Positions 9,451 to 33,281 of a stretch of 64,000 bases of DNA are shown in pieces (position 1 is the stretch's first letter; the number at the start of each line of letters is the position of its first letter). Below the pieces are notes generated by a model. The model was not told the DNA's origin, made no database searches, and saw nothing but the letters and a program-made list of their open reading frames with translations. Position numbers and translations under genes: made by a program. The stretch lies in the UHGV virus genome UHGV-0171787. One strand, written 5' to 3'. The stretch is from a virus.

Positions 9451-9455
9451 GAATA

Positions 9456-9486
9456 AAGCCGCCTTCGGGTGGCTTTTCTTGTTTTA
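9456..9486 (+). terminator. Rho-independent terminator
   Basis: aagccgcc-ttcg-ggtggctt hairpin followed by tttcttgtttt. Confidence 0.55.
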
Positions 9487-9507
9487 AGACCTATACAAGT
9501 CAGTGTG

Positions 9508-9516
9508 TAATGTATA
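9508..9516 (+). promoter_or_regulatory. Candidate phage promoter element TAATGTATA
   Basis: Same 9-mer also at 24244-24252; both sit 34-39 nt upstream of a plus-strand gene start. Confidence 0.4.
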
Positions 9517-9549
9517 TTCTTTGTCTACATATAACAAGGAGGACAACCT

Positions 9550-10302
9550 ATGGCAATGCCAGATGTGGCCTATCCGATTAACACGTATGGCTGGCTTAAG
9601 AAAGCTGTTGCCTTGTGGGCCGATCGGGACGATGATGAATTTGTCAATCAAATTCCAAACTTTATTAACTTTGCAGAGAAAGAGATCTATCGTAACTTAC
9701 GTATTCCTCCTCTGGAAAAAGAAGTGTATTTAGATATCAAAGATGGAGTGGCTTATATTCCTCCTGATTACTTAGAAGCTCAATGGATGATGAGAGCCAA
9801 AGATGGTGCAATCTTCCAAGTAACATCTCCTGAAGAGATTAGCTATCGTAGACAGCATGGAACAATTAATCCATCTCACTGGAATAACCAACCTGTTAAC
9901 TTTGCTCGTTTCGGGAGTCGTTTCATTTTCTACCCTAGTATTGAAGCAGATACTCCATACTACCCTGATGATGGAAGCCCTTTGATTCCAGCAGAAAACT
10001 CAGTAATTCTTAGTTATTATGCAGATCCACCGGAATTCCACGAAGATACAGATACCAGCGCTATTCTTACTATAGCACCAGAACTTCTTCTGTATTTTAC
10101 CCTACGTCATGCTTGTCTGTTTGTTCAAGATGATAACGGTGTTCAGAAATGGTCAGCATTAGGAAAAGCTATCCTTGATGAAATGGTAGAGCAGAACAAG
10201 AAACAAGAGTACTCAGGTTCACCTATCGCAATTCCGAATAACATGACTCGACTTCAGAGCAGCTTGCCTGATATTTATGGTATTCGCACTTCACGTGTAT
10301 AA
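9550..10302 (+). CDS. Virion structural protein (possible head-tail adaptor)
   Basis: 250 aa with AAGGAGG SD; position between capsid and tail fiber genes. Confidence 0.45.
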   Translation: MAMPDVAYPINTYGWLKKAVALWADRDDDEFVNQIPNFINFAEKEIYRNLRIPPLEKEVYLDIKDGVAYIPPDYLEAQWMMRAKDGAIFQVTSPEEISYRRQHGTINPSHWNNQPVNFARFGSRFIFYPSIEADTPYYPDDGSPLIPAENSVILSYYADPPEFHEDTDTSAILTIAPELLLYFTLRHACLFVQDDNGVQKWSALGKAILDEMVEQNKKQEYSGSPIAIPNNMTRLQSSLPDIYGIRTSRV

Positions 10303-10311
10303 GGAGAAAAC

Positions 10312-13044
10312 ATGATTAGTTACAACAATTCAGCACCTAAAGCGGTAAATAATGTAGGGCAATTCGGTGCTACAGAAGGGTCCATTGGTGCATATAAATC
10401 AGCAGCTGAGTATGCGTCTGATGCTAAATACTGGGCACTTCTATCCCAAACTAAATACTCTTCAGTAGAGGATATTCTGGCTGAAGTAGAACGCCTGTAT
10501 GCTCAAGGTTATCTACTGGAAGAAGATATTAAACAGCTTAAGAGTGACTTTGAGTCACAAGAGCAAGTGCTCTTAGGCTTGATTCAATCCACAGGAACTG
10601 CAATTGACAACACTAATGCAGCAACTGAACTTTCAAAAGAGGCAACTCAAAATGTTCTAGCACAACTTGACATTATCTCTAATATGACAGTTCAAACAAC
10701 GCTACTCCCTCCCGGAAGTTTAGCAACTGGATCTTATGACAACTTAACTGGAGAGTTTTCTTTTGGTATTCCAGAAGGTAAACCGGGCCGTGATGGGACA
10801 GATGGTACGATTTCTGATATCGGCAGTGTTCCTATTGGTACCCCTGTTACTGATGACTTCGGTTTCTATGTAGATCAGGATGATGGTGGTTTATACCGAG
10901 CCAATATGTCTGATATTGCCAACCTAGTGCCTTCTATCCGATCTATCTCTATCAACGGCGGTGCAGAGCAGACGGGTACTGTATCTTTTAACTCTGTATC
11001 TAGTTTTAACACTCGTACCGGAGATGTTGTATCACAAACTGGTGATTATGAAGTAAGTCAAATCACAGGGGCGGCTGCTAGTGGTGATAATTCAGATATT
11101 ACATCCCTTTCTGGCCTTACTACAGCAATATCTGTTTCACAGGGTGGTACAGGGGCTACATCTGCTGAGAATGCTCGAGTAAATCTTGGACTCGGTTCAG
11201 TGTCTGTGGAAAATGTAACCCCTTTAACTAAAGGAGGTACAGGAGCTACTACACCTTCTGGTGCACGTAGTAATCTTGGCTTAGGTTTAGTTTCAACTGA
11301 ATCTATCGTGCCAATCACTAAAGGTGGTACAGGGGCTACATCTGCTGAGAATGCTCGATTGGCATTGGTTGCAGCTAAAAGCGGTGCTAACTCAGATATT
11401 ACATCAATGACAAATAGCGTCACTTTTACCCAGCCAATATCTATTGCCGATGGGGTAAGTGCTACAAACGCTGTGAACCTCGGTCAAATTTCCTCAAATC
11501 AAGGGGCTTCTTTAATTGGTGTTAAGCAACCCTTTACAAACACAGTAGCTCGGACACAATACGACAAGAATGCGGAGATGATATCCATTCGTGACTTCCA
11601 TCAGAGCACTGACCCTGACTGGACGCTTGCGTTTAATCGTGCGTCAACAGTATCTGCACAGCAGGGGAAAATTATATTCGTACCTGCCGGTGAGTACAAA
11701 ATATCAGATTCTATCCTTCTCTATGATTCGGAAGATGTTTACAACGAGAAATATTATCAGCCACCAGGGAGCCGATTTGTCGGGGAGGGCCGCGCATCTA
11801 TTATTCGCAAGACAGCGGTAGGGACTCAGGACATTAACGCTGTTTTCTACAACAAAGGTAAGCGCGGTAATGTTGTCCGTGGACTGCGCATTCTGGATGA
11901 GACAACGGATAGTTACGGGTATTACACACCCAATACAGCTGTATACCAGGAATTTAGCGATCTGTTTATCCTGGCACAAAAATGGGGAATGTATTTTGGA
12001 GGTAATACCTTTGTTGGTGTTTCCCTCCGCGAAATCGTTGTCCAAGGTTCAAACGCTACGGGTATATATGGTGGTATTCATATCCATGGCGGGACGAGCT
12101 ACGTAGTATCTCAATGTAATGTGTTTAAAGCGAACTACTGTTCCTTTGAGTTGACTGGCTCATACTGCGAAGTGGGACCATTAGCATCTGATGATTGCAC
12201 TGGGACTCCGTATATTTTTAACGCAGGCTCGTACAGCGTTTCATCTTTAGGCTGTGAGCAGCCTTCGCGCCAGAACAGTGGAACAATTATTAAGGGAACC
12301 GGGGCTAACTTGCAGATAGACAATATACATCTGTATGACCAAACGCAGATTGCCGGTAGCTACATGTTTGACCTATCCGGCTATGCGAAAGTAAGTATTA
12401 AGCAACTAATCACCAGCTCAACCACTACTTTCAATGGTGCGATGGCCCGTTTAAACAACGGTGCTAAGTTAGAAATCGTGTACAGCAATAAGGTTGAAAC
12501 GTCGTGGCCTCAAAGGAATTCTTATGACACAACAACAACAACTTTCGCTACGTTAGGAAGTCTTGGTGGTGTGGCAACCATCCCGACATTCGGAACTACT
12601 ATGTGCCGAGATATAGCTCTACCAAATCCGAACCAGGAGAATGGTCCCTACTATCGTATTGTTGGTGGTCAATATGGAACTCGTGGTTGTATTGGAACTA
12701 TATTCACTCTACGTAGTGGTACTGGTATGACTCCTATCGCAGGTGCTTATAATCTTAACACAGTAAGCAGTAACACTGCTACGAACGCAAAATTAGTTAA
12801 AGCTGCTCATTGCGACACTGAAGCCCTCAAAGACTATGATAAATGGTTCACTGGTACGTACGAAGGGACGTCTTATCTATTTATCCGTATGCCTATTGAA
12901 GGCGGGGATCGCAACCTCGGGACATTCTTCTCTGGTGTTGTTTTTGGACAAGATCGAAATATGTTCAAAACCTTGTTAGGGAGTGAGATCTCCGGACTAA
13001 CTGAATATTCGTCGGGTAGTATTCTTACCGCGCAGGCAACTTAA
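10312..13044 (+). CDS. Tail fiber / tailspike protein with repeated GGTGAT..NLGLG motifs
   Basis: 910 aa; three 60-aa-period repeats including an exact 36-bp DNA repeat (11143-11178 and 11323-11358); C-terminal region beta-helix-like. Confidence 0.7.
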   Translation: MISYNNSAPKAVNNVGQFGATEGSIGAYKSAAEYASDAKYWALLSQTKYSSVEDILAEVERLYAQGYLLEEDIKQLKSDFESQEQVLLGLIQSTGTAIDNTNAATELSKEATQNVLAQLDIISNMTVQTTLLPPGSLATGSYDNLTGEFSFGIPEGKPGRDGTDGTISDIGSVPIGTPVTDDFGFYVDQDDGGLYRANMSDIANLVPSIRSISINGGAEQTGTVSFNSVSSFNTRTGDVVSQTGDYEVSQITGAAASGDNSDITSLSGLTTAISVSQGGTGATSAENARVNLGLGSVSVENVTPLTKGGTGATTPSGARSNLGLGLVSTESIVPITKGGTGATSAENARLALVAAKSGANSDITSMTNSVTFTQPISIADGVSATNAVNLGQISSNQGASLIGVKQPFTNTVARTQYDKNAEMISIRDFHQSTDPDWTLAFNRASTVSAQQGKIIFVPAGEYKISDSILLYDSEDVYNEKYYQPPGSRFVGEGRASIIRKTAVGTQDINAVFYNKGKRGNVVRGLRILDETTDSYGYYTPNTAVYQEFSDLFILAQKWGMYFGGNTFVGVSLREIVVQGSNATGIYGGIHIHGGTSYVVSQCNVFKANYCSFELTGSYCEVGPLASDDCTGTPYIFNAGSYSVSSLGCEQPSRQNSGTIIKGTGANLQIDNIHLYDQTQIAGSYMFDLSGYAKVSIKQLITSSTTTFNGAMARLNNGAKLEIVYSNKVETSWPQRNSYDTTTTTFATLGSLGGVATIPTFGTTMCRDIALPNPNQENGPYYRIVGGQYGTRGCIGTIFTLRSGTGMTPIAGAYNLNTVSSNTATNAKLVKAAHCDTEALKDYDKWFTGTYEGTSYLFIRMPIEGGDRNLGTFFSGVVFGQDRNMFKTLLGSEISGLTEYSSGSILTAQAT

Positions 13045-13048
13045 AAAT

Positions 13049-13072
13049 AAGGCCCTGTTTGGGGCCTTTTAG
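13049..13072 (+). terminator. Rho-independent terminator
   Basis: ggccc-tgtttg-gggcc hairpin followed by tttt. Confidence 0.5.
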
Positions 13073-13139
13073 CAGTATCACACTGCGATAAGTAATGAAT
13101 ATACTATACTTAAGAGGTTAAATAATAGGAGGATGATAG

Positions 13140-13358
13140 ATGAAAATAATGAAACAAGTTACATACGGATTAGCGTGTCTAAGCACCGGGTTTGTGATTT
13201 CAACCGCACTTCCAGTAACAGCAGGACACTCTCTGATTACTACCTCTGCACCAGCAGAGAAGCTTAGCTCTCATTGTAAGCAACGTACTATACAAAATAA
13301 CCTCGTTGTTATCTGCCCTGATGCTGAATCTAACGCCCTGAGAAAGATGCTACCTTAA
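13140..13358 (+). CDS. Small protein with N-terminal hydrophobic segment (possible holin or secreted protein)
   Basis: 72 aa, AGGAGG SD, one hydrophobic stretch, four Cys; lies immediately upstream of the lysozyme gene. Confidence 0.4.
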   Translation: MKIMKQVTYGLACLSTGFVISTALPVTAGHSLITTSAPAEKLSSHCKQRTIQNNLVVICPDAESNALRKMLP

Positions 13359-13385
13359 TAAAGGGACTACAAAAGGAGGTTAGAA

Positions 13386-13877
13386 ATGGATAACGTCGCA
13401 TTGCCACCTGTACATTTAAACTTAAGCCCAGCTGGAATGGAATTCATCATGAAGCATGAGGGTATGAGAACTAAGGCTTATAAGGATTCCGCAGGTATCT
13501 GGACGATATGTGTAGGGGCTACGCGCGATATGAATGGTTATCCGGTTAGGCAAGGATTAACATATTCTATAGAGGATTGTCTAGCTCTGCTAGATAGAGA
13601 CACACAAGACTCTGTTCGTGCTACTCAGAAAAACATAAAGGTTCCTTTGCTTGTTCATGAGTTCGATGCACTCACCTCTTTCAACTTCAATGTTGGCAGT
13701 GGGGCTTTGAGCACATCTAAGCTGAGGAAGGTTATCAATGGAGAAGTCAAAGGTGATATTTATTCCGAATTTCTTCGTTGGGATAAAATCACGGTTAAAG
13801 GAGAGAAACGGAGAAGTCCGGGTCTTCATAACAGAAGGGTTGCAGAAGCTGATCTTTATACAGAAGCTAAATATTAA
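13386..13877 (+). CDS. Lysozyme, glycoside hydrolase family 24 (T4 lysozyme-like)
   Basis: 163 aa; HEGMRTKAYKDSAGIWTICVGAT matches the Glu-8aa-Asp-5aa-Thr catalytic motif of GH24 lysozymes. Confidence 0.8.
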   Translation: MDNVALPPVHLNLSPAGMEFIMKHEGMRTKAYKDSAGIWTICVGATRDMNGYPVRQGLTYSIEDCLALLDRDTQDSVRATQKNIKVPLLVHEFDALTSFNFNVGSGALSTSKLRKVINGEVKGDIYSEFLRWDKITVKGEKRRSPGLHNRRVAEADLYTEAKY

Positions 13878-13889
13878 TGGAGGTGCCTC

Positions 13890-14693
13890 TTGGCTATTGA
13901 AACTAATGCGGTAGTAGTTACCGACTTAAACCCTCTCTATCCTCGTGATAGAGATTATATCTATGAAGGTGCAGCCCAGCTGCGCCTAGTTAAACAGGTA
14001 TTACAGAACACGTTCCCTAATTTGACAGAACCTATGACTGTTAATTCTGATACGCTAGCCGCTATCTCTGATAAGATTTCTTTTGCTGGAGATTATATGG
14101 ACGTTGGTGGTCTAATGATTAAGAATGGTACAGCAGGTACTGGAAATAATGATTTTACAACCAAAGCTCAAATGGAAGCTTTTATGCTTAACTGGATGCA
14201 AAACAAGATTTACAGGGTTGGGTCTTATTATATCACTGAGGAAGATATCAATCCGGGAGATTCTACATCTCTAGGGTTTGGTATCTGGACAGCTGTTACT
14301 GGTGTTATTATGGGTGCCGGGGTTGTGAATCCTGATGGGACAGTCCCTAATGCTCAGCGTGTGGAGTTTACTGCTGGTGCTACTGGTGGTCGTGTCTACA
14401 ACACGATTAAGACGGAGAATCTGCCATTGACCACAATCTCTGGTTCTAGTTTCTCTCTTTCTAATTATACACACACCCATACAACAACGTTTGGACGAGG
14501 TGATGCCAGTGGTCACAACAGCTCTCCTAACTGGTACAGTCCGGGAAGCGGTTATTCTGCTGTAACAAGCTCTGATACCCACACCCACTCTATTACGGGC
14601 GAAGCAACATTTGGTTATGATGACGTATCTCGTCAACCCATAAATACGTTACCACCTTTCCGTGCAGCATATATTTGGAGACGTATCAGCTAA
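13890..14693 (+). CDS. Tail fiber-like protein with His-box (HxH) motifs
   Basis: 267 aa; YTHTHTTTF and DTHTHSI motifs reminiscent of tail-fiber His boxes; Gly/Thr-rich. Confidence 0.45.
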   Translation: MAIETNAVVVTDLNPLYPRDRDYIYEGAAQLRLVKQVLQNTFPNLTEPMTVNSDTLAAISDKISFAGDYMDVGGLMIKNGTAGTGNNDFTTKAQMEAFMLNWMQNKIYRVGSYYITEEDINPGDSTSLGFGIWTAVTGVIMGAGVVNPDGTVPNAQRVEFTAGATGGRVYNTIKTENLPLTTISGSSFSLSNYTHTHTTTFGRGDASGHNSSPNWYSPGSGYSAVTSSDTHTHSITGEATFGYDDVSRQPINTLPPFRAAYIWRRIS

Positions 14694-14702
14694 GGAGGAA
14701 GT

Positions 14703-17660
14703 ATGGCTCTCTACCCAATAAAATCTTTGGGTGCGGTTGGTGTTATTGCCGACCAATCTCCTACAGATCTGGCTCCTAATGCATTCACTAATGCAATCAA
14801 TGCTCGGTTTGTAGAACAGCGTGTGTTTAAGACGGGGGGCTCTGCCCCTCTTTCTTACGTTGAGAGTGATAAAGGAATAAAACCATTATCATTCACTTCA
14901 ATGCCTTTTGACTACTTCAGTGCTAACAACAGTTTCTTGCTGGTAGGTACAGATAAGAGTATTTTTAGGCTAAATAATGAATCTATGATTGATGTTAGTC
15001 GAAGAGTGGCCACAGTCACCAAAAAGGCTGTGTCTTACATTAAGATAAACCCTGTGCTAACAGAGATTGTCCCCAAAGAAACATCTGTCATTATGAGTTT
15101 TAATGAAAGCAAAGTTCTCGAGGTATCTCTTCTTCCAGAGGGTGTTACTACTCCATCTCTTGTGTGGGAAGTTAGCAATCCTTCTTATGGTTCAATACTA
15201 GTTGACCCTGACGATAACAAGAAGGCTACATTGAGCGTCTTGTCTAATGAGGGAAGCTTCACTGTCACCATCTCTAATGAAGAGGAATCTGTTACTGCCA
15301 GTATTTCCGTAAAAGTTGTTGATTCGGATTCTGGTATATTTCTTAACCGAGACTCTGTCCAACTCCGGAAAGGTGGGACAACTACCCTTACAGCAACAAC
15401 AAGTAAGACCCCTCTAACATGGACTTCTTCTAACCCAGCCATTATCTCTGTAGCGCCTAATGGTGACACTACTACCGCAGTGTTAACCGCTCAAGGAGTA
15501 GGTAATGCACTGATAACTGTAAGCAACGGGTCTAAGACCTCAGAATGTTCTGTTAGCGTTATTAATCAGATTGACAGTATATCTTTGAGTCAAACAGACT
15601 TACAAATTAACCGTGGGACGTCTTATGTCTTATATGCTAGCTTGACCCCATCAAATGCTGCAAATCAGAAAATAACTTGGACCTCCTCTAATCCAAATGT
15701 TGCCACTGTTTCAGGAACTAGCCTTCAAGGAACTATCTCTGGACTCACAGCTGGGTTTACAGTTATAACAGCAACTACGGAAGAAGGCGAGAGGACAGCC
15801 ACCTGTAATGTCAGGGTTGAGTTATCAAGCAGGACTCTTTTTGCTGCTGCATCGGCTCCTCCTGAAGAGTCTAGTTCTACGGATTCAGATATTGACACCT
15901 CAGCTATGTCAGAGGGGAACTCTTTTTATGACTACTCTATGGTTGATGGCGTTGAAGCCTATTCAATAAATGAAGTCATGTCTAGATCAACTCAGCTTGA
16001 ATCCTTAACTCTTGATATTGTGGATACTGAAATTGATGTTGGGGATGAGTTAGTAATAACTGCAACGGCAGCCCCTGAAGGGGAGTATCTTTATAGTTGG
16101 GTGGTAGACCAGCCGGGGTACATATCCTCTACTTCCACTACCGAGCCTTCCTTTACTTTAACTGCAATTAAGACTGGCAAAGTGAAGATAACCTGTACTG
16201 CTAGTCAAGTAGCTCGTAGAGATTATGAAGCGTTTGAAGAATACCCTTGGTATAATACCATCATCTCTAACTGTGCAGTGTTCACTACTCACTATGAAAC
16301 ACCTCAAGTAAAAGAGTTTGCCTCTGAATACTTCACAGATCTTCCGGGGTGGGGAGAGCAGACGATAGTTGATGCTAATGGGAACCCTTCTGTTGTAAAA
16401 TATAACTGGAAGTGCGAAAGGATTCGTGCATTCAATAATCGCCTATTTGCTCTTAATATGCGAGAGTCTAATGCATCAGGGGTTACTACTCACTACCCTC
16501 TTCGACTTCGCTGGTCTAACTATGCTAATGAGAACAAGGCACCTACCTTGTGGGATGACTTTGCTTATGACAGATATGTGACTTCAGATTTAGCAGCAAA
16601 TGTTGTAGGTCAAACTGAGGCTCTAGAAAATGGATATGCCGGATACATAGATTTAGCTGACTCAAACGGTAGCTTAGTTGAGATTCTTCCTCTTAAGGAT
16701 TATCTATTTATCTATACGGAGTTTGAGACTTACATTGGATCCCCAACTAACAACACATATCAACCTCTAATGTTCAAGAAGCTCTTCAATGATTCTGGAA
16801 TCTTAGCACCTGAGTGTGTGGTTGAAGTTGAGAGTGGTCACTTTGTTGTTACTCAGAATGATGTTATTCTACACAATGGTGCAACTAAGAAGTCTATTGC
16901 ATCCAACAGGGTCAAGAATATGCTTATCAACGAGGTGTGTTTAGTAAACCCTTTAGCCACTAAGGTTCACCTACATCAAGATAAGAAGGAAGTGTGGATT
17001 CTCTATGTTGGACCCGGAGAACCCGCTGGGAGTTTTGCTTGTACAAAAGCTGCCGTATGGAACTACGAGTTTGATACATGGTCTTTCCGTACAATCCCAT
17101 TCTCTCATTGCATTGGTTTGGTGGATCCTCCGACTTTAGAAAAAGGTCCTACTTGGGTTGATTTCCAAGAGTACACTTGGGATGATCCCTCAATCAATGA
17201 ACTTGTGTGGAGAAAGGATTCTACTAACTTCCGTCAGAGAGTCACTGTAGTAGGTTCTTGGATGAAAGGCTTTTACCAAGTAGATGTAGGTCCTTATGAC
17301 TACTCATATGATAGGTTGAATGACGTTGTTGTCAAGAAGCCATTAGAGATGAGATTGGAGAGAACTGGTATAGACTTTGACAATGTAACTAACGAGTGGA
17401 ATCAGAAGCACATAAACAGGTTCCGCCCACAAGTAACAGGGTCAGGTACATACATATTCCAAGCGGGTGGTAGTCAGTATTCTGACCAAGAAGATAGACA
17501 CATTCATAGTGAAAAGTCTTATACGATCGGTGTTGACAGACATATAGGTGTCCGACTGAACCATCCGTATCTATTCTATAATGTTATAGATAATGATGTT
17601 AACAGTAATGCAGCTATCAATGGACTAACTATTGAGTTTGCTGTTGGCGGGCGAAGATAA
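14703..17660 (+). CDS. Large virion (tail) protein with Big_2 Ig-like domains
   Basis: 985 aa; several Big_2-like segments (e.g. ITWTSSNPNVATVSGT..GFTVITATT). Confidence 0.6.
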   Translation: MALYPIKSLGAVGVIADQSPTDLAPNAFTNAINARFVEQRVFKTGGSAPLSYVESDKGIKPLSFTSMPFDYFSANNSFLLVGTDKSIFRLNNESMIDVSRRVATVTKKAVSYIKINPVLTEIVPKETSVIMSFNESKVLEVSLLPEGVTTPSLVWEVSNPSYGSILVDPDDNKKATLSVLSNEGSFTVTISNEEESVTASISVKVVDSDSGIFLNRDSVQLRKGGTTTLTATTSKTPLTWTSSNPAIISVAPNGDTTTAVLTAQGVGNALITVSNGSKTSECSVSVINQIDSISLSQTDLQINRGTSYVLYASLTPSNAANQKITWTSSNPNVATVSGTSLQGTISGLTAGFTVITATTEEGERTATCNVRVELSSRTLFAAASAPPEESSSTDSDIDTSAMSEGNSFYDYSMVDGVEAYSINEVMSRSTQLESLTLDIVDTEIDVGDELVITATAAPEGEYLYSWVVDQPGYISSTSTTEPSFTLTAIKTGKVKITCTASQVARRDYEAFEEYPWYNTIISNCAVFTTHYETPQVKEFASEYFTDLPGWGEQTIVDANGNPSVVKYNWKCERIRAFNNRLFALNMRESNASGVTTHYPLRLRWSNYANENKAPTLWDDFAYDRYVTSDLAANVVGQTEALENGYAGYIDLADSNGSLVEILPLKDYLFIYTEFETYIGSPTNNTYQPLMFKKLFNDSGILAPECVVEVESGHFVVTQNDVILHNGATKKSIASNRVKNMLINEVCLVNPLATKVHLHQDKKEVWILYVGPGEPAGSFACTKAAVWNYEFDTWSFRTIPFSHCIGLVDPPTLEKGPTWVDFQEYTWDDPSINELVWRKDSTNFRQRVTVVGSWMKGFYQVDVGPYDYSYDRLNDVVVKKPLEMRLERTGIDFDNVTNEWNQKHINRFRPQVTGSGTYIFQAGGSQYSDQEDRHIHSEKSYTIGVDRHIGVRLNHPYLFYNVIDNDVNSNAAINGLTIEFAVGGRR

Positions 17661-17666
17661 TAACAA

Positions 17667-17694
17667 GGGAGCTTCGTGCTCCCTTTTCTTGTTT
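17667..17694 (+). terminator. Rho-independent terminator
   Basis: gggagc-ttcgt-gctccc followed by ttttcttgttt. Confidence 0.5.
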
Positions 17695-17710
17695 ATTATA
17701 AGGAGGGTCT

Positions 17711-18679
17711 ATGGGTGCTGGTGGCTTTCGTAAGAATACCGGAAGAAACAACACAACACAACCTTACAGTGTGGGCTTTCTAAACACCTCTGAGAGTGTA
17801 GAAACTAACAACGTTGCAATATATGATGAACTACAGAACATTAGCACTGCAACTAACCAAATGTTCCAAGCTATAGATGAAATCCATGAGGAGATTGATG
17901 TTCGTATTAAAGCTCTTCATGCTATGAATTTACAATTTGATGAATTAGAGAATCGTGTTACGACAGAGATTGAGACTGCCATCGCAGATATTATAACACA
18001 AATGGGTAACCTATCCACCGATGATATTTGGGATAATTCAGTTAGTCCTCCTGTTAAGTTAGATTCAACTATGTCTGGTATTAAGACTTCTATAGAAGGT
18101 AACACAGCATCTATACAGACTGTTGAAGGGATTGTTAATGATCAAGGACAAGAGATTGCCCTTATCCAATCTGACCTGACGAACGGAACAGGTAGTGCAT
18201 CTCAGTATATGAAGCTCACTGAGTACGAGGCTACTTGGGGCGTTAACTCCACGGTGAATGGTAAGACAGCAGGGGTAAAACTGACAAATAATGGTTCTAC
18301 AAGCCAATTCCAAGTCACTGCTGATAAATTCCTTGTTTCCGATGGCACATCAGGGAGTACTCCTTTTAAAGTAGTTGGTGGAAGGGCAGTTATGGAGTTT
18401 GCTGATATTACTAACGTTGTGATAACAACTGCTCAGATAGCAACAGCTAGGATTCAGTGGGCACAAATTGATAACGTTAGCATAACAAATGCACAGATTA
18501 CAAGTTTGTCCGCTGATAAGATAACAGCTGGGTCAATGTCAGGAACTAATTGGCGTCTTACGGTTGGTGGTGATTTTGTTTTGGGTAGGACTTCTAGTTC
18601 TCAGCTTTGGATGAATGGTAGTCGTATCGACTTCTATGATGCAAGTGGTACTCTTCGTATTAGAATAGGGAGTTGGTAA
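17711..18679 (+). CDS. Virion structural protein
   Basis: ORF track, 322 aa; within the structural block. Confidence 0.5.
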   Translation: MGAGGFRKNTGRNNTTQPYSVGFLNTSESVETNNVAIYDELQNISTATNQMFQAIDEIHEEIDVRIKALHAMNLQFDELENRVTTEIETAIADIITQMGNLSTDDIWDNSVSPPVKLDSTMSGIKTSIEGNTASIQTVEGIVNDQGQEIALIQSDLTNGTGSASQYMKLTEYEATWGVNSTVNGKTAGVKLTNNGSTSQFQVTADKFLVSDGTSGSTPFKVVGGRAVMEFADITNVVITTAQIATARIQWAQIDNVSITNAQITSLSADKITAGSMSGTNWRLTVGGDFVLGRTSSSQLWMNGSRIDFYDASGTLRIRIGSW

Positions 18680-18680
18680 T

Positions 18681-19715
18681 ATGGCGTATGGAATATGGAC
18701 AACGCCAGTCGGACCGGGACCAGCTTCTCCGGCTGAGCTTTTTATTGATAGTGATTCTACTTTCCCTCAATTCAAGAACAGGGTTAGTGGTAATTACAAC
18801 TTTAATGGGGGTAGTAGAGATTTCCCTATTTCTGGATGGGATGGCTCAGGCCAAATCGTTGTAGTCCCCACCGGCTCTTTGTGTTGGCAATGGGAAGTCC
18901 CTCCTAATCTTGTCCCTGATGTGTATGTTGTAAACAATATCAGTATTGTAAATAACTCAACTTTCAGGGTTAGTATAAACATGAATCCCGGAAGTAATCC
19001 ACTGTTTGACGTGGCTTTCAATGTATACCAAATATGGCCTAGAGCCAATAGAAACTATGGTATAACCTTTTCAAACACAGCTGATTACTTCTCTATATCA
19101 GATGCTGGAGTTGTTGGTCAATGTATTTGGGCTTGGGAAGGAAACATTAATGGCTCTATGCAAATACCAGCAATCAGTGGTTTTGATATGTCTAGAGCTT
19201 CAGTGTTTGCTAACTGGTCTGGAGGACAAGGTTTACTCTATGATGCTGGGAGTCGTAATATCAGGGTTTACCAAAACAGAACCTATGATAACGGAAACAA
19301 CAACCAAACAGGAACAATTAATAATGTGAGAGTTGCAGTGTTCTGTAACGGGGCTGGTGTTCCTACTCACAATGGTGGATTAAACATATATTCACCTAAT
19401 GGTTCTCAGTGTGTATTTTCTACTTACAGAACACCTTTTATGGTTGATCGTTTTATGGCTATGAGTGGAGGGAATACTGGACTTACATATCCTATGATAC
19501 CTCTGACGAACGGGGCAGGTTCTATTAGGGGTCAGGCGGGGAGTTGGTATTTCCAACATGCTAGATCTCATACGATGAACGGCTCTTCTTTTGGTACAGG
19601 GTATGGTCGATATATGTTCCAGTGGGATAGAAACTACGATATGGGTGGTGGTGGGGCTATCTCCCTTCAGATTCCAGTCCTAGATGCTAGGAAGATTTTT
19701 AGAAGCATACAATAA
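18681..19715 (+). CDS. Virion structural protein
   Basis: ORF track, 344 aa; start 2 nt after the previous stop. Confidence 0.5.
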   Translation: MAYGIWTTPVGPGPASPAELFIDSDSTFPQFKNRVSGNYNFNGGSRDFPISGWDGSGQIVVVPTGSLCWQWEVPPNLVPDVYVVNNISIVNNSTFRVSINMNPGSNPLFDVAFNVYQIWPRANRNYGITFSNTADYFSISDAGVVGQCIWAWEGNINGSMQIPAISGFDMSRASVFANWSGGQGLLYDAGSRNIRVYQNRTYDNGNNNQTGTINNVRVAVFCNGAGVPTHNGGLNIYSPNGSQCVFSTYRTPFMVDRFMAMSGGNTGLTYPMIPLTNGAGSIRGQAGSWYFQHARSHTMNGSSFGTGYGRYMFQWDRNYDMGGGGAISLQIPVLDARKIFRSIQ

Positions 19716-19724
19716 GGAGAACTT

Positions 19725-20507
19725 ATGGCAATTAGAATGGGTATAGAAGAATTAGACCCGATGGTTCAACAGGCTTCAAAGAAGTATGGTATACCAGCTG
19801 CTTTGATTCATGCTGTAATTCAAAGGGAGTCTAGTGGTCGTCCTAAGGTGGCTTCCGGAACTGGTCCTGTTGGTTTGATGCAGATCAGTAAAGGGTTAGC
19901 TAAAGATTACGGTTATAAACTAGAAGATAGGCTTGACCCAGCTAAGAATATCGACATGGGTGCTCGCTATATCAGAGATAACCTTAAAGCTTTTAATGGT
20001 GATGTTAAGAAAGCAATGGTTGGTTATTCAGAAGGTATTGGTGGAGCTAAGCAGATGTTCGCTGGTAAAAGAGGGTTTACTCCTCAGGCTCTCGACTCTA
20101 TGAATAATAAGCACTTCCTTCCTTTCTACGGTGATGCAGCTTCTCAGATTGCTAACCCTATTGGAGCTTTACAAGCTATCCAACCAGTCAACCAGTTTAA
20201 TCCTGACTTACTAGACAGAGAGAAAGCTGCACAAGCTCCAACTCAGGCGGAGATTGCTGCTTCTAAGACAGGAGCTTTAGGAGGTAATCCGGTAGAGTTT
20301 TACTCTGATGAAGTGCAGGAAGGGGAAGATCAGAAGCCTCAACAGAACTTTGGTAATGCAGTATTAGGAGTAGCTGCTATGCTTGCTGGTAAACCTCCTA
20401 CTTCTCAAACAGTTCAGAGGGCAAGTGCACCACATGCAGCAGGTTCTCAGTACAGTCCACAAACACAAGCAGTGCTTAGACGTTTGGCTAGCATTGGTGT
20501 AAAGTAA
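19725..20507 (+). CDS. Lytic transglycosylase (SLT domain) virion protein
   Basis: 260 aa; IQRESSGRP...GLMQI motif typical of the SLT family catalytic region. Confidence 0.7.
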   Translation: MAIRMGIEELDPMVQQASKKYGIPAALIHAVIQRESSGRPKVASGTGPVGLMQISKGLAKDYGYKLEDRLDPAKNIDMGARYIRDNLKAFNGDVKKAMVGYSEGIGGAKQMFAGKRGFTPQALDSMNNKHFLPFYGDAASQIANPIGALQAIQPVNQFNPDLLDREKAAQAPTQAEIAASKTGALGGNPVEFYSDEVQEGEDQKPQQNFGNAVLGVAAMLAGKPPTSQTVQRASAPHAAGSQYSPQTQAVLRRLASIGVK

Positions 20508-20526
20508 TAATCTTTAAGGAGGACTT

Positions 20527-21579
20527 ATGTCTTTATTTGGAAAATCAGCTTCTAGCAAAACCACAGTGGCCCCTTCCTCTCAGGTTGATGCCCTGCTGAA
20601 GCAGATTGTTGCTAATGCTCAGAAGATGCAGAACAACGATCAGGGATTCATCTCCCAACAGCTGGCTGGGTTTAATAACAATCAACAAGGTGCTCTGAAC
20701 AACTTATCAGCTTCTACAACTCAGAAGCAACTGGCTGACATGTACACACCTCGTACACAGCAAGGGCTGGACCAACTTAACTCTCTTGCTCAACAGTATC
20801 AGAATATTGTCAATGGTGGTGGAGTGACAGCCGAGGGGGTTAATAACTTTAGTAAAGGGTTAAATAATTCTGCTCTTGCTCAAGCAACTAGTAAAGCAGC
20901 TTCTAATGTATCTCTCGGAAATGGTTCTGACTCAGGTTCTCTCCGTAGAGCTGCTGCTCAGGGTGCTGCTCTGAACGGTGCTAATACAAACTTAGCTCGT
21001 ACTATCAGTGGTAAGAATATGGGAATCAGTGCCCTGCAACAAGACCAGAACTTCCAGAGAGGTTTGCTTGGTGCTCAGTCTGGTCTAGCTGGACAGAATC
21101 TCAATCTTGGTGCTCAAGGTGTTCAGGCAACTCAACAAGCTATTCAGAATCAACTTATGGCTGGCAATCTACAACAGCAACAGGCTCAAGCACAAGCTGA
21201 TATCAATTGGCAGAACGCTATTGGTTCTCAGCAGTACGGATGGAATCAGCTTAACAACCAACTTAATGTATTAAATAGTGTAAGCCCAATGGCTGGATAT
21301 ACAATTAAGAATGCCGCTCCGGGCGTTAACGTAGGACAACAGCTCCTAGGTGCTGGTATCACTGGTTTAGGTATTGCGGGTCGTATGGGTGCTTTCTCTC
21401 CTAACCAACAGACTCAGAATGCTTGGAGTTCATATAACAACTCGGGTGGGCAATCTGGAATGGCTGGTCCTATGATTGGAGGTTCTAATCTTTCTCAACA
21501 GAGGGGTCAGTCTAACTGGTTATCCACGGCAGGGAGTAATATCTTAGGTGGGGTCTTGGGGGCATTTGGAGCAAACTAA
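20527..21579 (+). CDS. Gly/Gln/Asn-rich internal virion protein
   Basis: 350 aa low-complexity; N-terminus MSLFG..GFNNNQ..ALNNL is paralogous to the next gene. Confidence 0.5.
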   Translation: MSLFGKSASSKTTVAPSSQVDALLKQIVANAQKMQNNDQGFISQQLAGFNNNQQGALNNLSASTTQKQLADMYTPRTQQGLDQLNSLAQQYQNIVNGGGVTAEGVNNFSKGLNNSALAQATSKAASNVSLGNGSDSGSLRRAAAQGAALNGANTNLARTISGKNMGISALQQDQNFQRGLLGAQSGLAGQNLNLGAQGVQATQQAIQNQLMAGNLQQQQAQAQADINWQNAIGSQQYGWNQLNNQLNVLNSVSPMAGYTIKNAAPGVNVGQQLLGAGITGLGIAGRMGAFSPNQQTQNAWSSYNNSGGQSGMAGPMIGGSNLSQQRGQSNWLSTAGSNILGGVLGAFGAN

Positions 21580-21591
21580 AGGAGAATATCT

Positions 21592-22560
21592 ATGTCACTT
21601 TTTGGTGGAGGCGGAAGTAAAACTACTTCCCAAATGATTCGCCCTGAATACATTCAACAGTATATTGACCAGCTTAATAAGCAGATTGGTAATACTAGTT
21701 CAGGGGATTATGTTTATCGAGATAATGTAGGGTTTAATAACAATCAGACAGAGGCACTTAATAACCTAGCACAATCTGGCGCTTTAGGCACTCTCTCACA
21801 GCAATATATGGATGCAGCAGGTCAAGGCTTGGGTTATCTAGATAATGCCTATAAAGGCTATCAGAGCCTCTCTGGACAAGGTGGGATTACTGGAGAACAA
21901 ATTGGTGCTCTCGCTGGTCAACTGTATGATGATGATGCTGTGCAAGCAGCTATTACAGCTAATAACGAGCAGGTTCAACAGAACTTGGCACGTAATGCTC
22001 TTCCTCAATTAGCTCAACAGTATGCTGGTCAGCAAGGCTCAGGTGCTCGTATGGCTAAATCTTTTGCCCAAGGTGATGCTCTGAATCAGATGCAAGGGCA
22101 AGCAACAGATATTACCAACAGTGCCTATAACTCTGCTATCAACCAAGCTGAAAGCATTCTCTCTGGTAATAGACAGAATCAGGCAGCTGCTCTCTCTGGT
22201 CTTTCTACTATTGGTTCTAACCTTTCTAACCTAGGTCAGCAGGGTGCTAATTTGTCTCAACAGCAAATAATGAATCAATGGAATGCAGGGTTGCAGCAAC
22301 AACAGCAACAACAGAATGAATATGATAATGCCTACCAGAACGCTCAGAACGCAGCTAATTGGGGATGGCAAGATATCAACAACCAACTCGGTGCAGCAGG
22401 TGTACTTAACGGTGCTCTCGGACAAACTACAACTACTAAAACATCTGGTGGTAGTGGTGGCTTCTTAGGTGGGGCCATGAGCGGTGCAGCAGCAGGCTCT
22501 GCGTTTGGGCCTTGGGGTGCATTAGCTGGGGGTGTAATCGGTGGGTTGGCTAGTACTTAA
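21592..22560 (+). CDS. Gly/Gln/Asn-rich internal virion protein (paralog of 20527-21579)
   Basis: 322 aa; shares the MSLFG..VGFNNNQTEALNNLAQS N-terminal pattern with the upstream gene. Confidence 0.5.
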   Translation: MSLFGGGGSKTTSQMIRPEYIQQYIDQLNKQIGNTSSGDYVYRDNVGFNNNQTEALNNLAQSGALGTLSQQYMDAAGQGLGYLDNAYKGYQSLSGQGGITGEQIGALAGQLYDDDAVQAAITANNEQVQQNLARNALPQLAQQYAGQQGSGARMAKSFAQGDALNQMQGQATDITNSAYNSAINQAESILSGNRQNQAAALSGLSTIGSNLSNLGQQGANLSQQQIMNQWNAGLQQQQQQQNEYDNAYQNAQNAANWGWQDINNQLGAAGVLNGALGQTTTTKTSGGSGGFLGGAMSGAAAGSAFGPWGALAGGVIGGLAST

Positions 22561-22573
22561 TTAGGAGATAAAT

Positions 22574-24223
22574 ATGCAACAGACAACTTACGCTCAGGTC
22601 AGAAGTCGTGACCCGAGAAATACTTTCTATGGTGTTAATCCGGGAGCGGCTTCGGCCTCTCCTTATATGGCTAGACCCGTTCAGACAGCAGATATTTCTA
22701 TGTATCAACGACCTGCTGTACCTGCTGGGTTATCTGCTCTAGTAGGTCAGGCTTCAGTTGATCATCAGAATATGTTAAATCCTGTTCAGAGTAATGGTCT
22801 TCCTTCTGACATTCCGAATGATGTACAACCTCAAGCACAACAGGCTGTAACTCTTCCTGAGTTTGAGAATCAAGAAACCATGCAAGCTGCTGGGCTTTCT
22901 CCTTCTTCTATTCCTCCAGAATCAGAACCTCTTCCGGTAACACCTCCTACTAAACCGTTAGAAGCTGGTCCTATGGAGTTTACTCCTTCTCAGGTGGAAC
23001 AGGCACAAGGTGTGGTTAACACTCTTGCTCAAGGACAAGACACTGGTGATGGGATGGCTGCTGCTACTCGCGCTAAAGATCAAGAGCGTGTTAACAATGA
23101 TATCTTGCAAGTTGCTAAAGCTAAAGACCCTTCAGAAGCTTGGAACAAGCTACAGAAAGAGCCATTCTATCAGAACTCTAGTTTCTATACAGGTTTGATG
23201 GGTGTAGGTCTTTCCATTATGTCAGGTAAATCCCCTATCGAAGCTTTCCAAATTGGTCAGGGAATGGCTAATCAAGATGAGACTAAGAAGCAATTGGAAG
23301 CTAACCGTGATGCATTGGTTGAGCAAGGTTTCTCTCAAGACTCTATTGCTGCTGCTATTGCAAGCGGTGACCCTTCTCTTCTGAAGATGAAAACTAAAGA
23401 CCCACTCCAACAGGAGGCTCTGTATGCTGCTCGTGAAGAACGACAGAATGCTGAATGGGATAGACGTCAACGGATTCAAGAGCAGACTATGCGTGAGCGT
23501 GCTGATGAGACTCGTCGTGCCGCTGAAGAAAGGGCTAACCTGAACTTTGAACGTCAGAAAGAGTTGATTGGCTTCCGTGATAAGGTTAAGGCTGAACGTG
23601 CTGAACAAGCTGCTCAGAGTTTTAACTTTAACCCGAAAGAAGTTCGTCTTGCTCAGAACACAGCTGAAGGTACAGTTGCTAAGCAGTGGGCGGAGAAAGG
23701 TGGTCTATTTAATCAATCCAACAAAGACTTGGATTTGGCTGACAAAGCAGTTAAAGATAAAGATTATCAGACAGCTCGTTCTGCTTACATGCAGGCTATC
23801 ATGAACTCCGCAAGGGCTGAAATCGGTGCTACTCGTTCACTTACTGAAGAGGACTTGGGACACTTCGCAGAAGACCCGTCGGTCTTTGTTCGTGTTGGCA
23901 ACAAGTTTGCACTGAAGTCTGGATGGCGTCCTACTGATGCTGCTCTTTCTTATGCTCGTAAGCAAGCTAACGTTGGTCACACCTCTGCAATGAAAGGTGT
24001 TGCTGATGCTAAGAAAGCGACAATTGAAGCTTACATCGGTTCTGGTATGGATAAGAAGAGAGCTACTGCATTGGTTAACCGTGCAATTCCTTCTGGTGGT
24101 TTCTATGACCCTCTAGGTGTTTTCTCTGAGCAAGCGGAAGAATCTGTTGGGGGTGCAGCAACCAACCCTAAGCTTAATGGTGCTTTATCAGCTGTCGAAG
24201 ACACTAGCTGGTTCACTCAATAA
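22574..24223 (+). CDS. Internal virion protein
   Basis: 549 aa, Pro/Gln-rich N-terminal region, charged helical C-terminal half. Confidence 0.5.
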   Translation: MQQTTYAQVRSRDPRNTFYGVNPGAASASPYMARPVQTADISMYQRPAVPAGLSALVGQASVDHQNMLNPVQSNGLPSDIPNDVQPQAQQAVTLPEFENQETMQAAGLSPSSIPPESEPLPVTPPTKPLEAGPMEFTPSQVEQAQGVVNTLAQGQDTGDGMAAATRAKDQERVNNDILQVAKAKDPSEAWNKLQKEPFYQNSSFYTGLMGVGLSIMSGKSPIEAFQIGQGMANQDETKKQLEANRDALVEQGFSQDSIAAAIASGDPSLLKMKTKDPLQQEALYAAREERQNAEWDRRQRIQEQTMRERADETRRAAEERANLNFERQKELIGFRDKVKAERAEQAAQSFNFNPKEVRLAQNTAEGTVAKQWAEKGGLFNQSNKDLDLADKAVKDKDYQTARSAYMQAIMNSARAEIGATRSLTEEDLGHFAEDPSVFVRVGNKFALKSGWRPTDAALSYARKQANVGHTSAMKGVADAKKATIEAYIGSGMDKKRATALVNRAIPSGGFYDPLGVFSEQAEESVGGAATNPKLNGALSAVEDTSWFTQ

Positions 24224-24243
24224 GACCTAAGTCCTGCCTTCTA

Positions 24244-24252
24244 TAATGTATA
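24244..24252 (+). promoter_or_regulatory. Candidate phage promoter element TAATGTATA
   Basis: Second copy of the 9-mer found at 9508; lies 39 nt upstream of the ATG at 24291. Confidence 0.4.
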
Positions 24253-24290
24253 TAGGGGGTAGGACATTTTTATTTATAAAAGGAGACGTT

Positions 24291-27200
24291 ATGGCTAACA
24301 TTAAACCGTGGGAAGAAGCTTCCAAAGCTCCTGCGTATCTGAATGCCTCTCCGGAGCAACAAGCTCAAATGAGAGAACAATATAAGGCAGCAGGTGGCTC
24401 TATTCCTGAGGAACAACCAGTAGCACAACCACAACAAGAAGAACGTGGTGCTATAGGTGAGTTTGCTCAAGGTGTGTCAAATGCTCTTCAGTCCGGCAGT
24501 GCTAACATCTCTGCTAATCTTGCTAGGGGTATTGGAGGCTTAGTTGAGATTGGTGAAGATCTAACTGGAGCACAAACCGGTTACGGGAAGCGTATGCAAG
24601 AGAACGCTCAAAATCTCTTGAAAGAACGTATGGATAAGATTGAGGATGGGATTGGTAAATCTGCTGGTCAGTATGCTGGGGTGGTTGCCGACATTGGTCT
24701 GACAGTTGCTAACCCATTAGTTGCCGCTGCTATCATCGCAGGTCGTGAGACAGGTCGTGCATATGCAGACCAAACCCCTGAAGAGGGGGAAGATAAGTCT
24801 GTTCTAGATGCAGCCCTAGTTGGTGGTGCTAACTATGCAGCTCAAAGAATCCTTCCGGGTGCTGTTGGGACAGCTGAATCAGCTCTTGGTCGTATCGGTC
24901 AGAACGTTGCTAGTAACGCAGTGGCTGGTGCTAAAGGTGGTGCTCTTGTTGGTGCTGCTGAGGTTCAGAACAAGTATGGTGATGACAATGATCTAGCTAA
25001 GACATTGGAAGGTGTTATCGAAGAAGGTGCTATGGGTGCTGCATTCGGTGGTGCAGTTGGTGGGGTTCATGGTTTGATTAGCCGTCCGGATTCTGCTGTC
25101 TTCAGGAATACTCCAGAGTATGCGAAGACTGATATTGCTGCTGATGACGAACTGATTCGTAGTGCTAAGAATGTTGATGAATTGAAAGAGGCTTACTCTA
25201 AAGCTGAAACTGCTAACGCTGCTTCTGCTCTGAACCTTCTCGATGAGAATGGATTCCGTATTACAGATGCTGTTGCTGTAGATTCTCCTGCTGCTCAGCG
25301 TATTCTTAATACTGACCAAGCTCGTGCTGAGAAAGCTGCTTCCGTTCAGAAAGAGCATTCCAACATTCCGGGCCTTAATCCTTTAGCTTCTCCTGCTAAG
25401 ACTCGTGGTAAAGCATTCGCTGATAATGAGCACAACCAGAAGCAGGCTGTTGCTATGAAGGATGCAATGGCTGACTACACCAAAGACAACACGAAAGCTC
25501 TTACAGATGTTCTGGATAACCTAGATCGTGAATTAACTTCTCTCCGAGCTTCTGGTGATTTTACTGGTAGTCCGATTGATATTAAGAACCGTACACAAGC
25601 CGACCGTGATTTCATTGATGCTTACAAGACTTTCTACAATGAAGCAAATCGATTCAAAGCTCGTGATGGTGAAGACTTTAATAACTTTGTAGAGAAAGCT
25701 GCTGAACTACAGAAGATGGCTGATAATGTTTCTCCAGAGATGAAGAAAGCTATTGGTGGGTTGAAGAAACTGAAAGGTATGCCTGAAGGTTTTAATCCTA
25801 TCCAAGATGCTTACACTCTGAACAATACAGCTAAGTTCATGAGCAATCAAGATCGTGGTTGGACTTCCCTGACTGATGATGGCTTCCGTGAGGCTTCTTC
25901 ACCTAGTCTGGTAATGAACACTCTTGGTGCTGCTAAGTATGCTCTGAATCGCTTCTCTTCTCAGCGTGCTCGTTCTCAGCGTGTTAAGCAACAAGAGTCT
26001 AACAGCGAAGCTATCCGCTCTCTGGCTCGTGGTGATTTGGAAGTTGCTCGTGCTAAATCTACTGCTGATGAAGCTCGCGCTAAGATGGAAGAAGAACCAG
26101 TTGTTGATGACATTAAATTTAAGATGCAAAATGATGTAGAAACCGAACCGGTTCGGGAGCCTTCTTCTAGTACTGTGACGGAAGAAAATCTTCCTTCTTC
26201 TGTTCCTCAAGAAGCCCCTCTTACGGCTCGTGATTTAGTTGCTCAAAGACGTGCAGTTAAGCAGGTGGAACAGCGTCGTGCGCAAGAAGAGGCCGCACAG
26301 GCTCCAGAATCGACCGTAGAGGAACCAACCATCAAAGCTGAGCCATTACCTGCCCGTGCCCCTAAAGCTCCTAAGGAAGCTGTACAGGATGTTAAACCAT
26401 CAATTGGTGTAGAACGTTTAGCTGCCATGTCCAGTGCTGCTCGTCAAGCTACTAAAGATCGTGCAGAACGTTTTGCTCGTTCTCTGTACTCTAAGGCTGC
26501 TAAGGCTAAAGCAACTGCTGAGAACTTCTTATCTTACAAGGGTGATCCTAAGGAGTTGATGCGTCGTATTCGTCAGGAAGATAATGCTATCAACACTGAA
26601 CGTCATGAAGAAATGGCTCGTAACCAGCTGGCTTCTCAGCAAGGCATTGCTACTGCTAAGAACAACACGGTACGAACTAATTTTGCTGAATGGGTTAAGG
26701 AACGTGGTCTTCCAGAAGACATTGCTACTAAGGCATTACGTGCTGAAGAGAAAGGTTTAGGTGGGAACGTAACTAACTTGGATAGCCTGAAACGTCGTGC
26801 AGAAAGGTTATATCAGAAGCAGCGTGAGGATGAGTTTGATAGGCTGTATCAACAAGCTCTTGAAGAGAACAAAGCTTTCGATAATAAGAATGCTCCTAAG
26901 CTGGTTGACCAGAAGAAAGAGCTTCAGTCTGAGATTGATGCTTTAATTGATTCAGAACCTTTACGTCCTGCTCAGAAAGATGCTATGCGTAAGCTGATGA
27001 ATGACTTTGTAGATGGGAAGTTTAAATCTTCAGAGAAGGCTGGTAGGGAAGAGGCTTTGGAAGTTGGTCAGATGAAGGATATTTGGGATGGGTTTATCAA
27101 CACCTATAACAGAGAAGTGAATGCCTTCAACAGAGCTAATAAGAACTCTCAGTATGAAGCTTTTGCTAAACACATACAGGCTCGTGAAGAACGTCTTGCT

Positions 27201-30505: not shown

Positions 30506-31676
<1,171 letters not shown>

Positions 31677-32715: not shown

Positions 32716-33281
32716 TATTAATTTCCTTATTTAATTTGAAAGATTGTTGCTCTCTTTGAGCGGTTATGTATAATATACATTACATATATAGTGTAGGAAC
32801 TACCGGAAGGTAGTAGGTTTTGTCCAAACAAAAGTCTCTTTAGAGTTATTTGTTGGGGACTGTCTCTTATAAACCCGAGACTGTCTAGCAGTTACATAAG
32901 CTCTAGCTTTTTCTGTAGCTGCATACTTATGATTAAATTTCATGGTAGTATATCTCTAAGTGCTATAATATATATAAGTTATAGCTGATAAAGTTATTGC
33001 ACGGGACTGACGACGATAAGGCGCAGACGACAACCTCTCATAAGTTTGTAAGAAATTGAGAGACTACCGGAAGGGCAGGAGCCACCTGCGAGATAAAAAT
33101 AGAGAATTAAGGAATCCTTGATTTAGGTTGTAGGGACTCCTAGGGACTTTGATTCTCTATTTAAAAGAATAAATAATTATTACATCTAACACTAAACAAA
33201 CTGAAACAAAGATAAGAAACTTCTTATAAATACTCATTACTTATCACTTAAACAGTTAACTAGCCTCTGATATAAAGAAGT
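32716..33281. other. AT-rich 565-bp intergenic region with repeated ACTACCGGAAGG motif
   Basis: ctacc-ggaa-ggtag hairpin at ~32800 and a second actaccggaagg at ~33065; several TATAAT-like hexamers. Confidence 0.3.

Follow-up and report, generated by a model that had tools for sequence, protein, structure and literature searches.

The window analysed here is the whole 64,000-nucleotide (nt) stretch of DNA from UHGV virus genome UHGV-0171787, and our subject is a nine-base word, TAATGTATA, that recurs in it upstream of genes, together with the gene for a sigma-like protein at 30772-31416. About 100 phiEco32-like coliphages of the subfamily Gordonclarkvirinae (among them LAMP, Bas92-94, 172-1, NJ01 and ES17) match an 8-kb and a 25-kb piece of the window at 92-94% DNA identity. 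Judged by this identity, the window is a close relative of phiEco32, a Gordonclarkvirinae coliphage, and it shares the phiEco32 genome layout, with the late genes on one strand and the middle and early genes on the other.

A phage sigma factor and its co-factor

An earlier note on this DNA had described the product of 30772-31416 as a sigma70/ECF-like protein. This is a real open reading frame (ORF) on the minus strand, whose product is 97.2% identical to phiEco32 gp36 (6 differences in 214 amino acids) and matches chain F of PDB 9M7Y (E = 2e-143). In a Pfam scan, Sigma70_r2 matched below threshold (E = 0.0024, 18.1 bits against a cut-off of 24), a region 4 match was absent, and no region 2 or region 4 domain scored above threshold. 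Despite this weak Pfam result, the protein counts as a sigma factor because the solved structure of gp36 shows sigma-2-like and sigma-4-like folds; by the structure and function of gp36 it is a sigma, yet its sequence is an outlier of the Sigma-70/ECF family. The residues of gp36 published as contacting DNA, the clamp helix or the flap tip are all unchanged in the window protein (20/20), and the DNA-reading residues E79, H80, Y83, R84, W90, S91, S94, N95, Y186 and R187 are all retained. In the sigmas of SU7, ECBP2 and KBNP1711 (80% identical), 19 of the 20 contact residues are retained throughout, the sole exception being M138, which is L in SU7 and ECBP2. The window also encodes the co-factor gp79 (Table 1), the function of which is carried over from published work on phiEco32 (PMC12276001; PMC8948821). 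As the earlier note had proposed, a phage RNA polymerase seems to be lacking: none of its families was found among the nine ORFs scanned, which included the large ORFs of unknown function.

Six promoter elements at the positions known from phiEco32

According to Lavysh et al (2022; PMC8948821), one strongly conserved element, tAATGTAtA, makes up the promoters of phi32_gp36. Experiments located six of them, upstream of phiEco32 genes 6, 13, 26, 40, 58 and 68, with transcription starting 6-8 bp downstream of the element, and each phiEco32-subgroup phage that was examined proved to have similar sequences where they were expected (PMC8948821). The supplementary table of the same paper gives TAATGTAgA for P6, TAATGTATA for P13, P26, P40 and P58, and aAATGTATA for P68 (PMC8948821), and the same six sites were recovered computationally (Guzina and Djordjevic, 2015; PMC4331800). 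A cryo-electron microscopy structure of the open complex on P68 (PDB 9M7Y; Xu et al, 2025; PMC12276001) places the centre of AATGTA at -11.5. The gp36 N-terminal domain reads -14A, -13A, -12T and -11G, with the fork held by W90 and Y83, whereas in the C-terminal domain R187 contacts -37G and Y186 contacts -34A. Region 4 of sigma-70 is displaced by gp79, which also stabilises the C-terminal domain of gp36 (PMC12276001). Dependence on the gp36 holoenzyme and stimulation by gp79 were demonstrated on phiEco32 P26, which is activated by gp79 and classed as late, and on P68, classed as middle (PMC12276001).

In the window, four exact copies of TAATGTATA occur (at P13, P26, P40 and P58 in Table 1), and copies with one mismatch stand at two further positions orthologous to known promoters (P6 and P68). 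The pattern [TA]AATGTA[TG]A, which in phiEco32 finds the six known sites, finds the same six variants in the same order in the window, together with one coding match, and the core AATGTA is invariant in all six sites. The proteins encoded just downstream are 94-99.6% identical to the products of phiEco32 genes 6, 13, 26, 40, 58 and 68. All four exact-copy sites are intergenic, lie on the strand of the neighbouring genes and end 33-58 nt before a start codon that bears a Shine-Dalgarno sequence. The P6 copy is the published variant; its context is the same as in phiEco32 and is also kept in SU7 and ECBP2. The P68 copy is likewise the published variant, with the -37G and -34A of the promoter used for cryo-electron microscopy. 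When the six window sites are aligned, the first motif base is at -15 and the element spans -15 to -7.

The earlier note had placed the word at 9508-9516 and 24244-24252, within a range of 9500-24300, as a late-gene element likened to those of phiEco32-type phages. Both copies are present on the plus strand, as the orthologs of P13 and P26. Between their ends and the ATGs at 9550 and 24291 there are 33 and 38 nt, so that the offsets of 34 and 39 nt that had been given are right; as also described there, they follow a terminator (9455-9476) and a gene end (stop codon at 24221-24223), respectively. Start 24291 is the real start of the large gene downstream, the ORF-list start at 24246 being an ATG within the motif. 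The pair was incomplete as an inventory, since two more exact and two one-mismatch copies exist, and the range takes in only two of the six sites and leaves the sigma gene outside. The late assignment holds for P6, P13 and P26, whereas P40, P58 and P68 are middle promoters on the minus strand, by classes taken from the later papers rather than from the original mapping work. The resemblance was borne out by the published tAATGTAtA consensus, the sigma ortholog and the orthologous positions, and the use of TAATGTATA by host polymerase with a phage sigma is exactly what the literature states for phiEco32 (PMC8948821; PMC12276001).

Table 1. Coordinates of the promoter elements, genes and hairpins discussed in the text.
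Feature	Position	Strand	Description
Terminator just upstream of P6	1483-1498	+	From terminator scan
P6-type promoter element, late	1514-1522	+	TAATGTAGA; predicted start ~1529; gene 1534-2007; protein 98.7% identical to phi32_6
Intrinsic terminator ending head-gene transcripts	9455-9476	+	9-bp stem, TTCG loop, T-rich tail; just upstream of P13
Upstream box of P13	9485-9493	+	TAAGACCTA; at -38 to -30; contains the invariant -34 A
P13-type promoter element, late	9508-9516	+	TAATGTATA; predicted start ~9523; gene 9550-10302; protein 98.8% identical to phi32_13
Candidate promoter	13093-13101	+	TAATGAATA; T at -10 replaced by A; holin gene 13140-13358
Upstream box of P26	24221-24229	+	TAAGACCTA; its TAA ends the gene before it
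Terminator-like hairpin, 15-bp	24231-24265	+	Loop ATGTA is the core of the P26 element; then T-rich ATTTTTATTT
P26-type promoter element, late	24244-24252	+	TAATGTATA; predicted start ~24259; gene 24291-28598; protein 94.4% identical to phi32_26
Phage sigma factor gene	30772-31416	-	214 amino acids; ortholog of phiEco32 gp36
P40-type promoter element, middle	32774-32782	-	TAATGTATA; predicted start ~32767; gene 31969-32715(-); protein 99.6% identical to phi32_40
P58-type promoter element, middle	37258-37266	-	TAATGTATA; predicted start ~37251; gene 36904-37221(-); protein 97.1% identical to phi32_58
P68-type promoter element, middle	40856-40864	-	AAATGTATA; predicted start ~40849; gene 40487-40816(-); protein 96.3% identical to phi32_68
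gp79 co-factor gene	47051-47299	-	82 amino acids; 100% identical to phi32_79

Placement and conservation of the element

TAATGTATA occurs four times in the window against 0.74 expected, a modestly unusual count that 1 of 100 dinucleotide shuffles reached, and the enrichment signal lies in the placement of the copies, not in raw counts. The earlier note had suggested a genome-wide motif search with strand and position statistics. All four exact copies and six of the seven matches to the family pattern are in non-coding DNA, which makes up about 10% of the window (an approximate figure, as the crude gene model overextends ORF 5' ends and wrongly dropped gene 68), and all seven matches are on the sense strand of the local genes. 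By our own arithmetic, assuming 12% non-coding DNA, the probability of finding at least six of seven in non-coding DNA is ~2e-5. An unbiased k-mer count in oriented non-coding DNA also put AATGTATA and TAATGTATA among the top words.

Conservation is stronger evidence than these statistics. For comparison we used phiEco32 (Kuravirus), SU7 and ECBP2 (Suseptimavirus) and KBNP1711 (Nieuwekanaalvirus), which with the window make five genomes. Across the three genera, the element is retained at the orthologous positions examined, with two exceptions: the P6 copy of KBNP1711 is TAATGTAAG, in which the AATGTA core alone is kept, and in SU7 the motif was not found ahead of the gene treated as the ortholog of gene 58. 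At P40 and P58 the genomes have non-homologous upstream flanks and become similar only from the motif onwards; for P58, four genomes have four unrelated upstream flanks, all with A at -34 and G at -36.

Several other matches were considered and set aside. The sequence TAAAGTATA at 33495(-) was rejected as a promoter as it falls within a small upstream ORF, the stop codon of which overlaps the ATG that follows, and AAATGTATA at 60181(-) as it lies inside a coding ORF and has T at -34. The remaining one-mismatch matches, which are in coding DNA or on the antisense strand, are not considered promoters. AACTTAT, raised by the same k-mer count, was dropped for want of a consistent context. A literature search for TAAGACCT returned unrelated primer sequences only.

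Probable promoters for host core polymerase with the phage sigma

We conclude, with a probability of roughly 0.93, that the recurring word is the -10-like element of promoters that E. coli core RNA polymerase uses when it carries the product of the phage sigma gene (30772-31416(-)). The sequences of the elements, their placement, their orthology and their conservation are direct observations on the genomes compared. From the near-identity to phiEco32, we infer that the window sites depend on a gp36-type holoenzyme and are stimulated by gp79, and that start sites and timing would follow phiEco32 as well.

On this analogy, the early genes on the minus strand would be transcribed first, by host sigma-70 polymerase, with promoters that probably lie outside the window, past its right end. 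Between 44 and 64 kb, no strong sigma-70 promoter was seen on that strand, which fits early promoters past the right end, as in phiEco32 (PMC8948821). Read-through into the middle region would yield gp79 and the sigma; gp79 would bind the polymerase clamp, displace sigma-70 region 4 and hold the C-terminal domain of the phage sigma, thereby shutting off sigma-70. The N-terminal domain of the sigma would read A-14, A-13, T-12 and G-11 of AATGTA and open the DNA from -11, while its C-terminal domain would touch the -35 region (G-37, A-34). Initiation about 7 nt after the element would then give, from the three plus-strand starts in Table 1, transcripts of the late packaging, head, tail and large virion protein genes and, from the three minus-strand starts, transcripts of the middle genes. 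P40 may also provide positive feedback on sigma synthesis, because the sigma gene lies further downstream of it on the same strand.

Points against this reading and alternative explanations

Several observations weigh against this account of the word as a phage sigma-dependent promoter element. The raw count of the 9-mer is only ~5x expectation, and the one-mismatch class is not enriched overall (20 against 19.8 expected). G at -37, although reported as essential on P68, is present in only three of the six window promoters (P6, P40 and P68), which means that the -35 contact cannot be identical everywhere. A terminator-like hairpin at 31947-31930 stands between gene 40 and the sigma gene, so that feedback from P40 would need read-through. 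Lastly, the start sites and sigma dependence given for this phage are carried over from phiEco32.

The count statistics bear on the simplest alternative, that an A+T-rich 9-mer has recurred by chance in A+T-rich spacers: four copies do turn up in 1 of 100 shuffles, with one-mismatch matches at chance level. This takes no account of placement and orientation, for which the ~2e-5 calculated above applies, nor of positional conservation in three genera with unrelated flanks and the match to an experimentally mapped, published consensus. Because of placement together with conservation at orthologous sites, chance is excluded for practical purposes, and we give it the lowest probability of all the explanations considered. 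It is also very improbable, in our estimate, that the elements are ordinary host sigma-70 or extended -10 promoters to which the phage sigma is irrelevant. The motif is A+T-rich and contains TATA, TGTATA(T/A)T resembles TGnTATAAT, and a sigma-70 consensus scan gave weak 9/12 matches overlapping P6 (1490-1517) and the candidate promoter upstream of the holin gene (13077-13105). However, the scan found no match at P13, P26, P40, P58 or P68, sigma-70-like sites are not enriched in the window, and the invariant AATG at -14 to -11 differs from the bases of the sigma-70 -10 hexamer. The literature moreover states that the gp36 holoenzyme recognises these promoters and that gp79 shuts off sigma-70 transcription (PMC8948821; PMC12276001).

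The word might instead recur as part of an RNA hairpin or terminator, or as the binding site of another protein, and not as a promoter. What speaks for this is P26, where a strong hairpin (24231-24265), followed by a T-rich tail, has the motif as its loop and upper stem, and also P40, the copy of which is overlapped by short inverted repeats. A convincing hairpin is nevertheless found only at P26, the other five copies lying downstream of terminators or gene ends rather than within them, and a hairpin role leaves the fixed distance to the start codon, the strand bias, the -34 A and the match to the contacts defined by the structure without explanation. Hairpin and promoter roles can coexist at P26. 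We hold this explanation to be highly unlikely, on a par with host sigma-70 promoters.

A possible loose -35-like signal, a candidate seventh promoter and an antisense copy

Upstream of the element, the six window sites have just one invariant column, A at -34. All 29 promoter copies compared across the five genomes keep this A, in agreement with the structure, in which Y186 reads that base. A G is always present at -35, -36 or -37 in the window sites. P13 and P26 share the box TAAGACCTA, exact copies of which occur in the window only at 9485 and 24221, each starting 23 nt before the element, and which is conserved at P13/P26 in all five genomes. GGTAGT stands at -37 to -32 in P68 and, in the window only, in P40. 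Together, these features may amount to a loose -35-like signal, in which the invariant -34 A is preceded by a G one to three bases upstream and of which TAAGACCTA would be the P13/P26 version. At the other end, a purine is found at motif end +7 (the predicted +1) at every site, which is consistent with starts 6-8 bp downstream, not proof of them.

In the window, TAATGAATA lies upstream of the holin gene, with 38 nt between its end and the ATG; across genomes this distance is 35-41 nt. The sequence GTAATGAA is kept in all five genomes although the flanks diverge, accompanied by G at -36, A at -34 and, at the predicted +1, another A. A terminator-like hairpin precedes it (13049-13068 as listed for the minus strand, with a stem readable on the plus strand). 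Scans of viral contigs with gp13 and the sigma returned mostly the same reference genomes, with three distant, uncultured contigs being informative (L011-L013; IMG/VR, 82-90 kb). In these, AATGAATA replaces AATGTATA at P6-like and P13-like positions, within a layout of terminator, element and gp6-like or gp13-like gene (gp13 ~53% identical) and with A at -34 and +1. As these contigs carry AATGAATA at the P6 and P13 positions, A at -10 is, by this comparison, a natural variant in the wider family; the promoter side, which is the side compared, suggests that promoter and sigma changed together in L011-L013. TAATGAA(T/A)(A/C) at 13093-13101 may be a seventh, weaker, non-canonical promoter that might serve the holin/endolysin cassette. 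The published set of six lacks it, and the later phiEco32 papers covered here do not mention it.

Next to P40, phiEco32, SU7, KBNP1711 and ECBP2 have a perfect copy of TAATGTATA on the opposite strand, ~72 nt away (at 36704-36712(+) in L001) and oriented into a non-coding block of 110 nt with almost no variation across genera. In the window, the antisense copy is degenerate (TAATATATA at 32966-32974(+), in which the gp36-read G-11 is changed to A), and a ~120-nt insertion with a 47-codon ORF (32800-32943(-)) separates it from P40. The relatives' copy may thus be a consensus promoter that fires into the 110-nt block and that is predicted to have been inactivated in this phage. We regard the combination of a seventh promoter at the holin gene, a loose -35-like signal and the loss here of the relatives' antisense promoter as tentative, with somewhat less than an even chance that all three hold. 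None of the three is described in the later papers covered here.

Hairpins at the promoters and the predicted P6 leader

A terminator scan showed that the P26 element forms the loop and upper stem of the hairpin listed in Table 1, whose RNA fold has a free energy of -22.8 kcal/mol (z = -5.3). All 15 pairs are kept in both sequence types found across the three genera, and the five differences all preserve pairing through G-U wobble; as the comparison comprises just two distinct sequences with no double compensatory change, its covariation support for the hairpin is suggestive only. With the predicted start at 24259 falling in the 3' arm, transcripts arriving from upstream would meet a terminator, while those begun at P26 would be made without the 5' arm.

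Hairpins resembling intrinsic terminators are 2-3x commoner across the whole window than in shuffled sequence (32 against 11.9, 31 against 14.0 and 26 against 13.5). Several of them lie directly upstream of sigma-dependent promoters, in a terminator-then-promoter punctuation of operons.

The P6 element stops only 11 nt short of the ATG, giving a predicted leader of ~5 nt from the start near 1529. A ribosome-binding site, AGGAG (1523-1527), is upstream of this predicted start, and the spacing is kept in all five genomes, which implies near-leaderless translation of gene 6 from P6 if the predicted start is correct.

Relation to known systems

The window shares with the phiEco32 gp36/gp79 system the same sigma (97%), co-factor (100%), six positions and sequence variants, with no difference of substance; mosaic gene content accounts for the different upstream flanks at P40 and P58, and the antisense copy by P40 is perfect in phiEco32 and degenerate in the window. 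The promoter system of the window is therefore already known in molecular detail, and it carries little weight as a discovery, as the sigma, co-factor, consensus, six positions and open-complex structure have been published for phiEco32. What the window adds is a transcription map of six or seven sites that is ready for annotation, with operon boundaries and middle and late classes, and, from the promoter comparison, testable details for the structural model (a universal -34 A, a variable -37 G and an A-at--10 variant near the lysis genes).

In Salmonella phage 7-11, gp47 is likewise a phage sigma that recruits the host core polymerase for late genes, with promoters at similar places in the genome (PMC8948821). 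That system differs in its bipartite promoter (GTAAtg-16-aCTA), in a sigma that is only ~15% identical, and in having neither gp79 nor a middle class. The window sites match the single-element phiEco32 type, not the phage 7-11 type. At the late promoters of T4 (TATAAATA), gp55, a sigma-like phage factor, reads a single extended -10-type element. The T4 proteins gp55, AsiA and MotA are unrelated to those of the phiEco32 type and the consensus is different; gp36 also contacts the -35 region via its sigma-4-like domain. The action of gp79 has been compared with the appropriation of sigma by T4 AsiA/MotA (PMC12276001).

Other features of the window

The conserved ~110-nt block beside P40 lies at about 33060-33170, within a 566-nt spacer (32716-33281), and is more conserved than the neighbouring genes across three genera. 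Two direct repeats of GTCCCTA lie within it, flanked by a 10-bp inverted repeat (AATAGAGAAT / ATTCTCTATT), and the plus-strand RNA of the block folds with z = -3.0. An Rfam search of the P40-adjacent spacer gave nothing convincing (best match E = 0.5), and a small RNA, a replication origin and a protein-binding site are all possibilities for the block.

Just inside the start of the DNA polymerase gene, 35818-35846(-) matches the sigma-70 consensus at 12 of 12 positions (TTGACA-17-TATAAT) and has the TG extension. The same 12/12 sequence is present in phiEco32, and other genera keep TGnTATAAT, not the -35 hexamer.

A 253-nt group I intron (44043-44295(-); Rfam RF00028, 86 bits) splits the primase/helicase gene, such that residues 1-416 of phi32_75 correspond to 45543-44296 (100% identical) and residues 417-596 to 44042-43503 (98.9%). 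The intron is absent in phiEco32, and its segment is spanned by one of 98 related database records (VTCCBPA_211).

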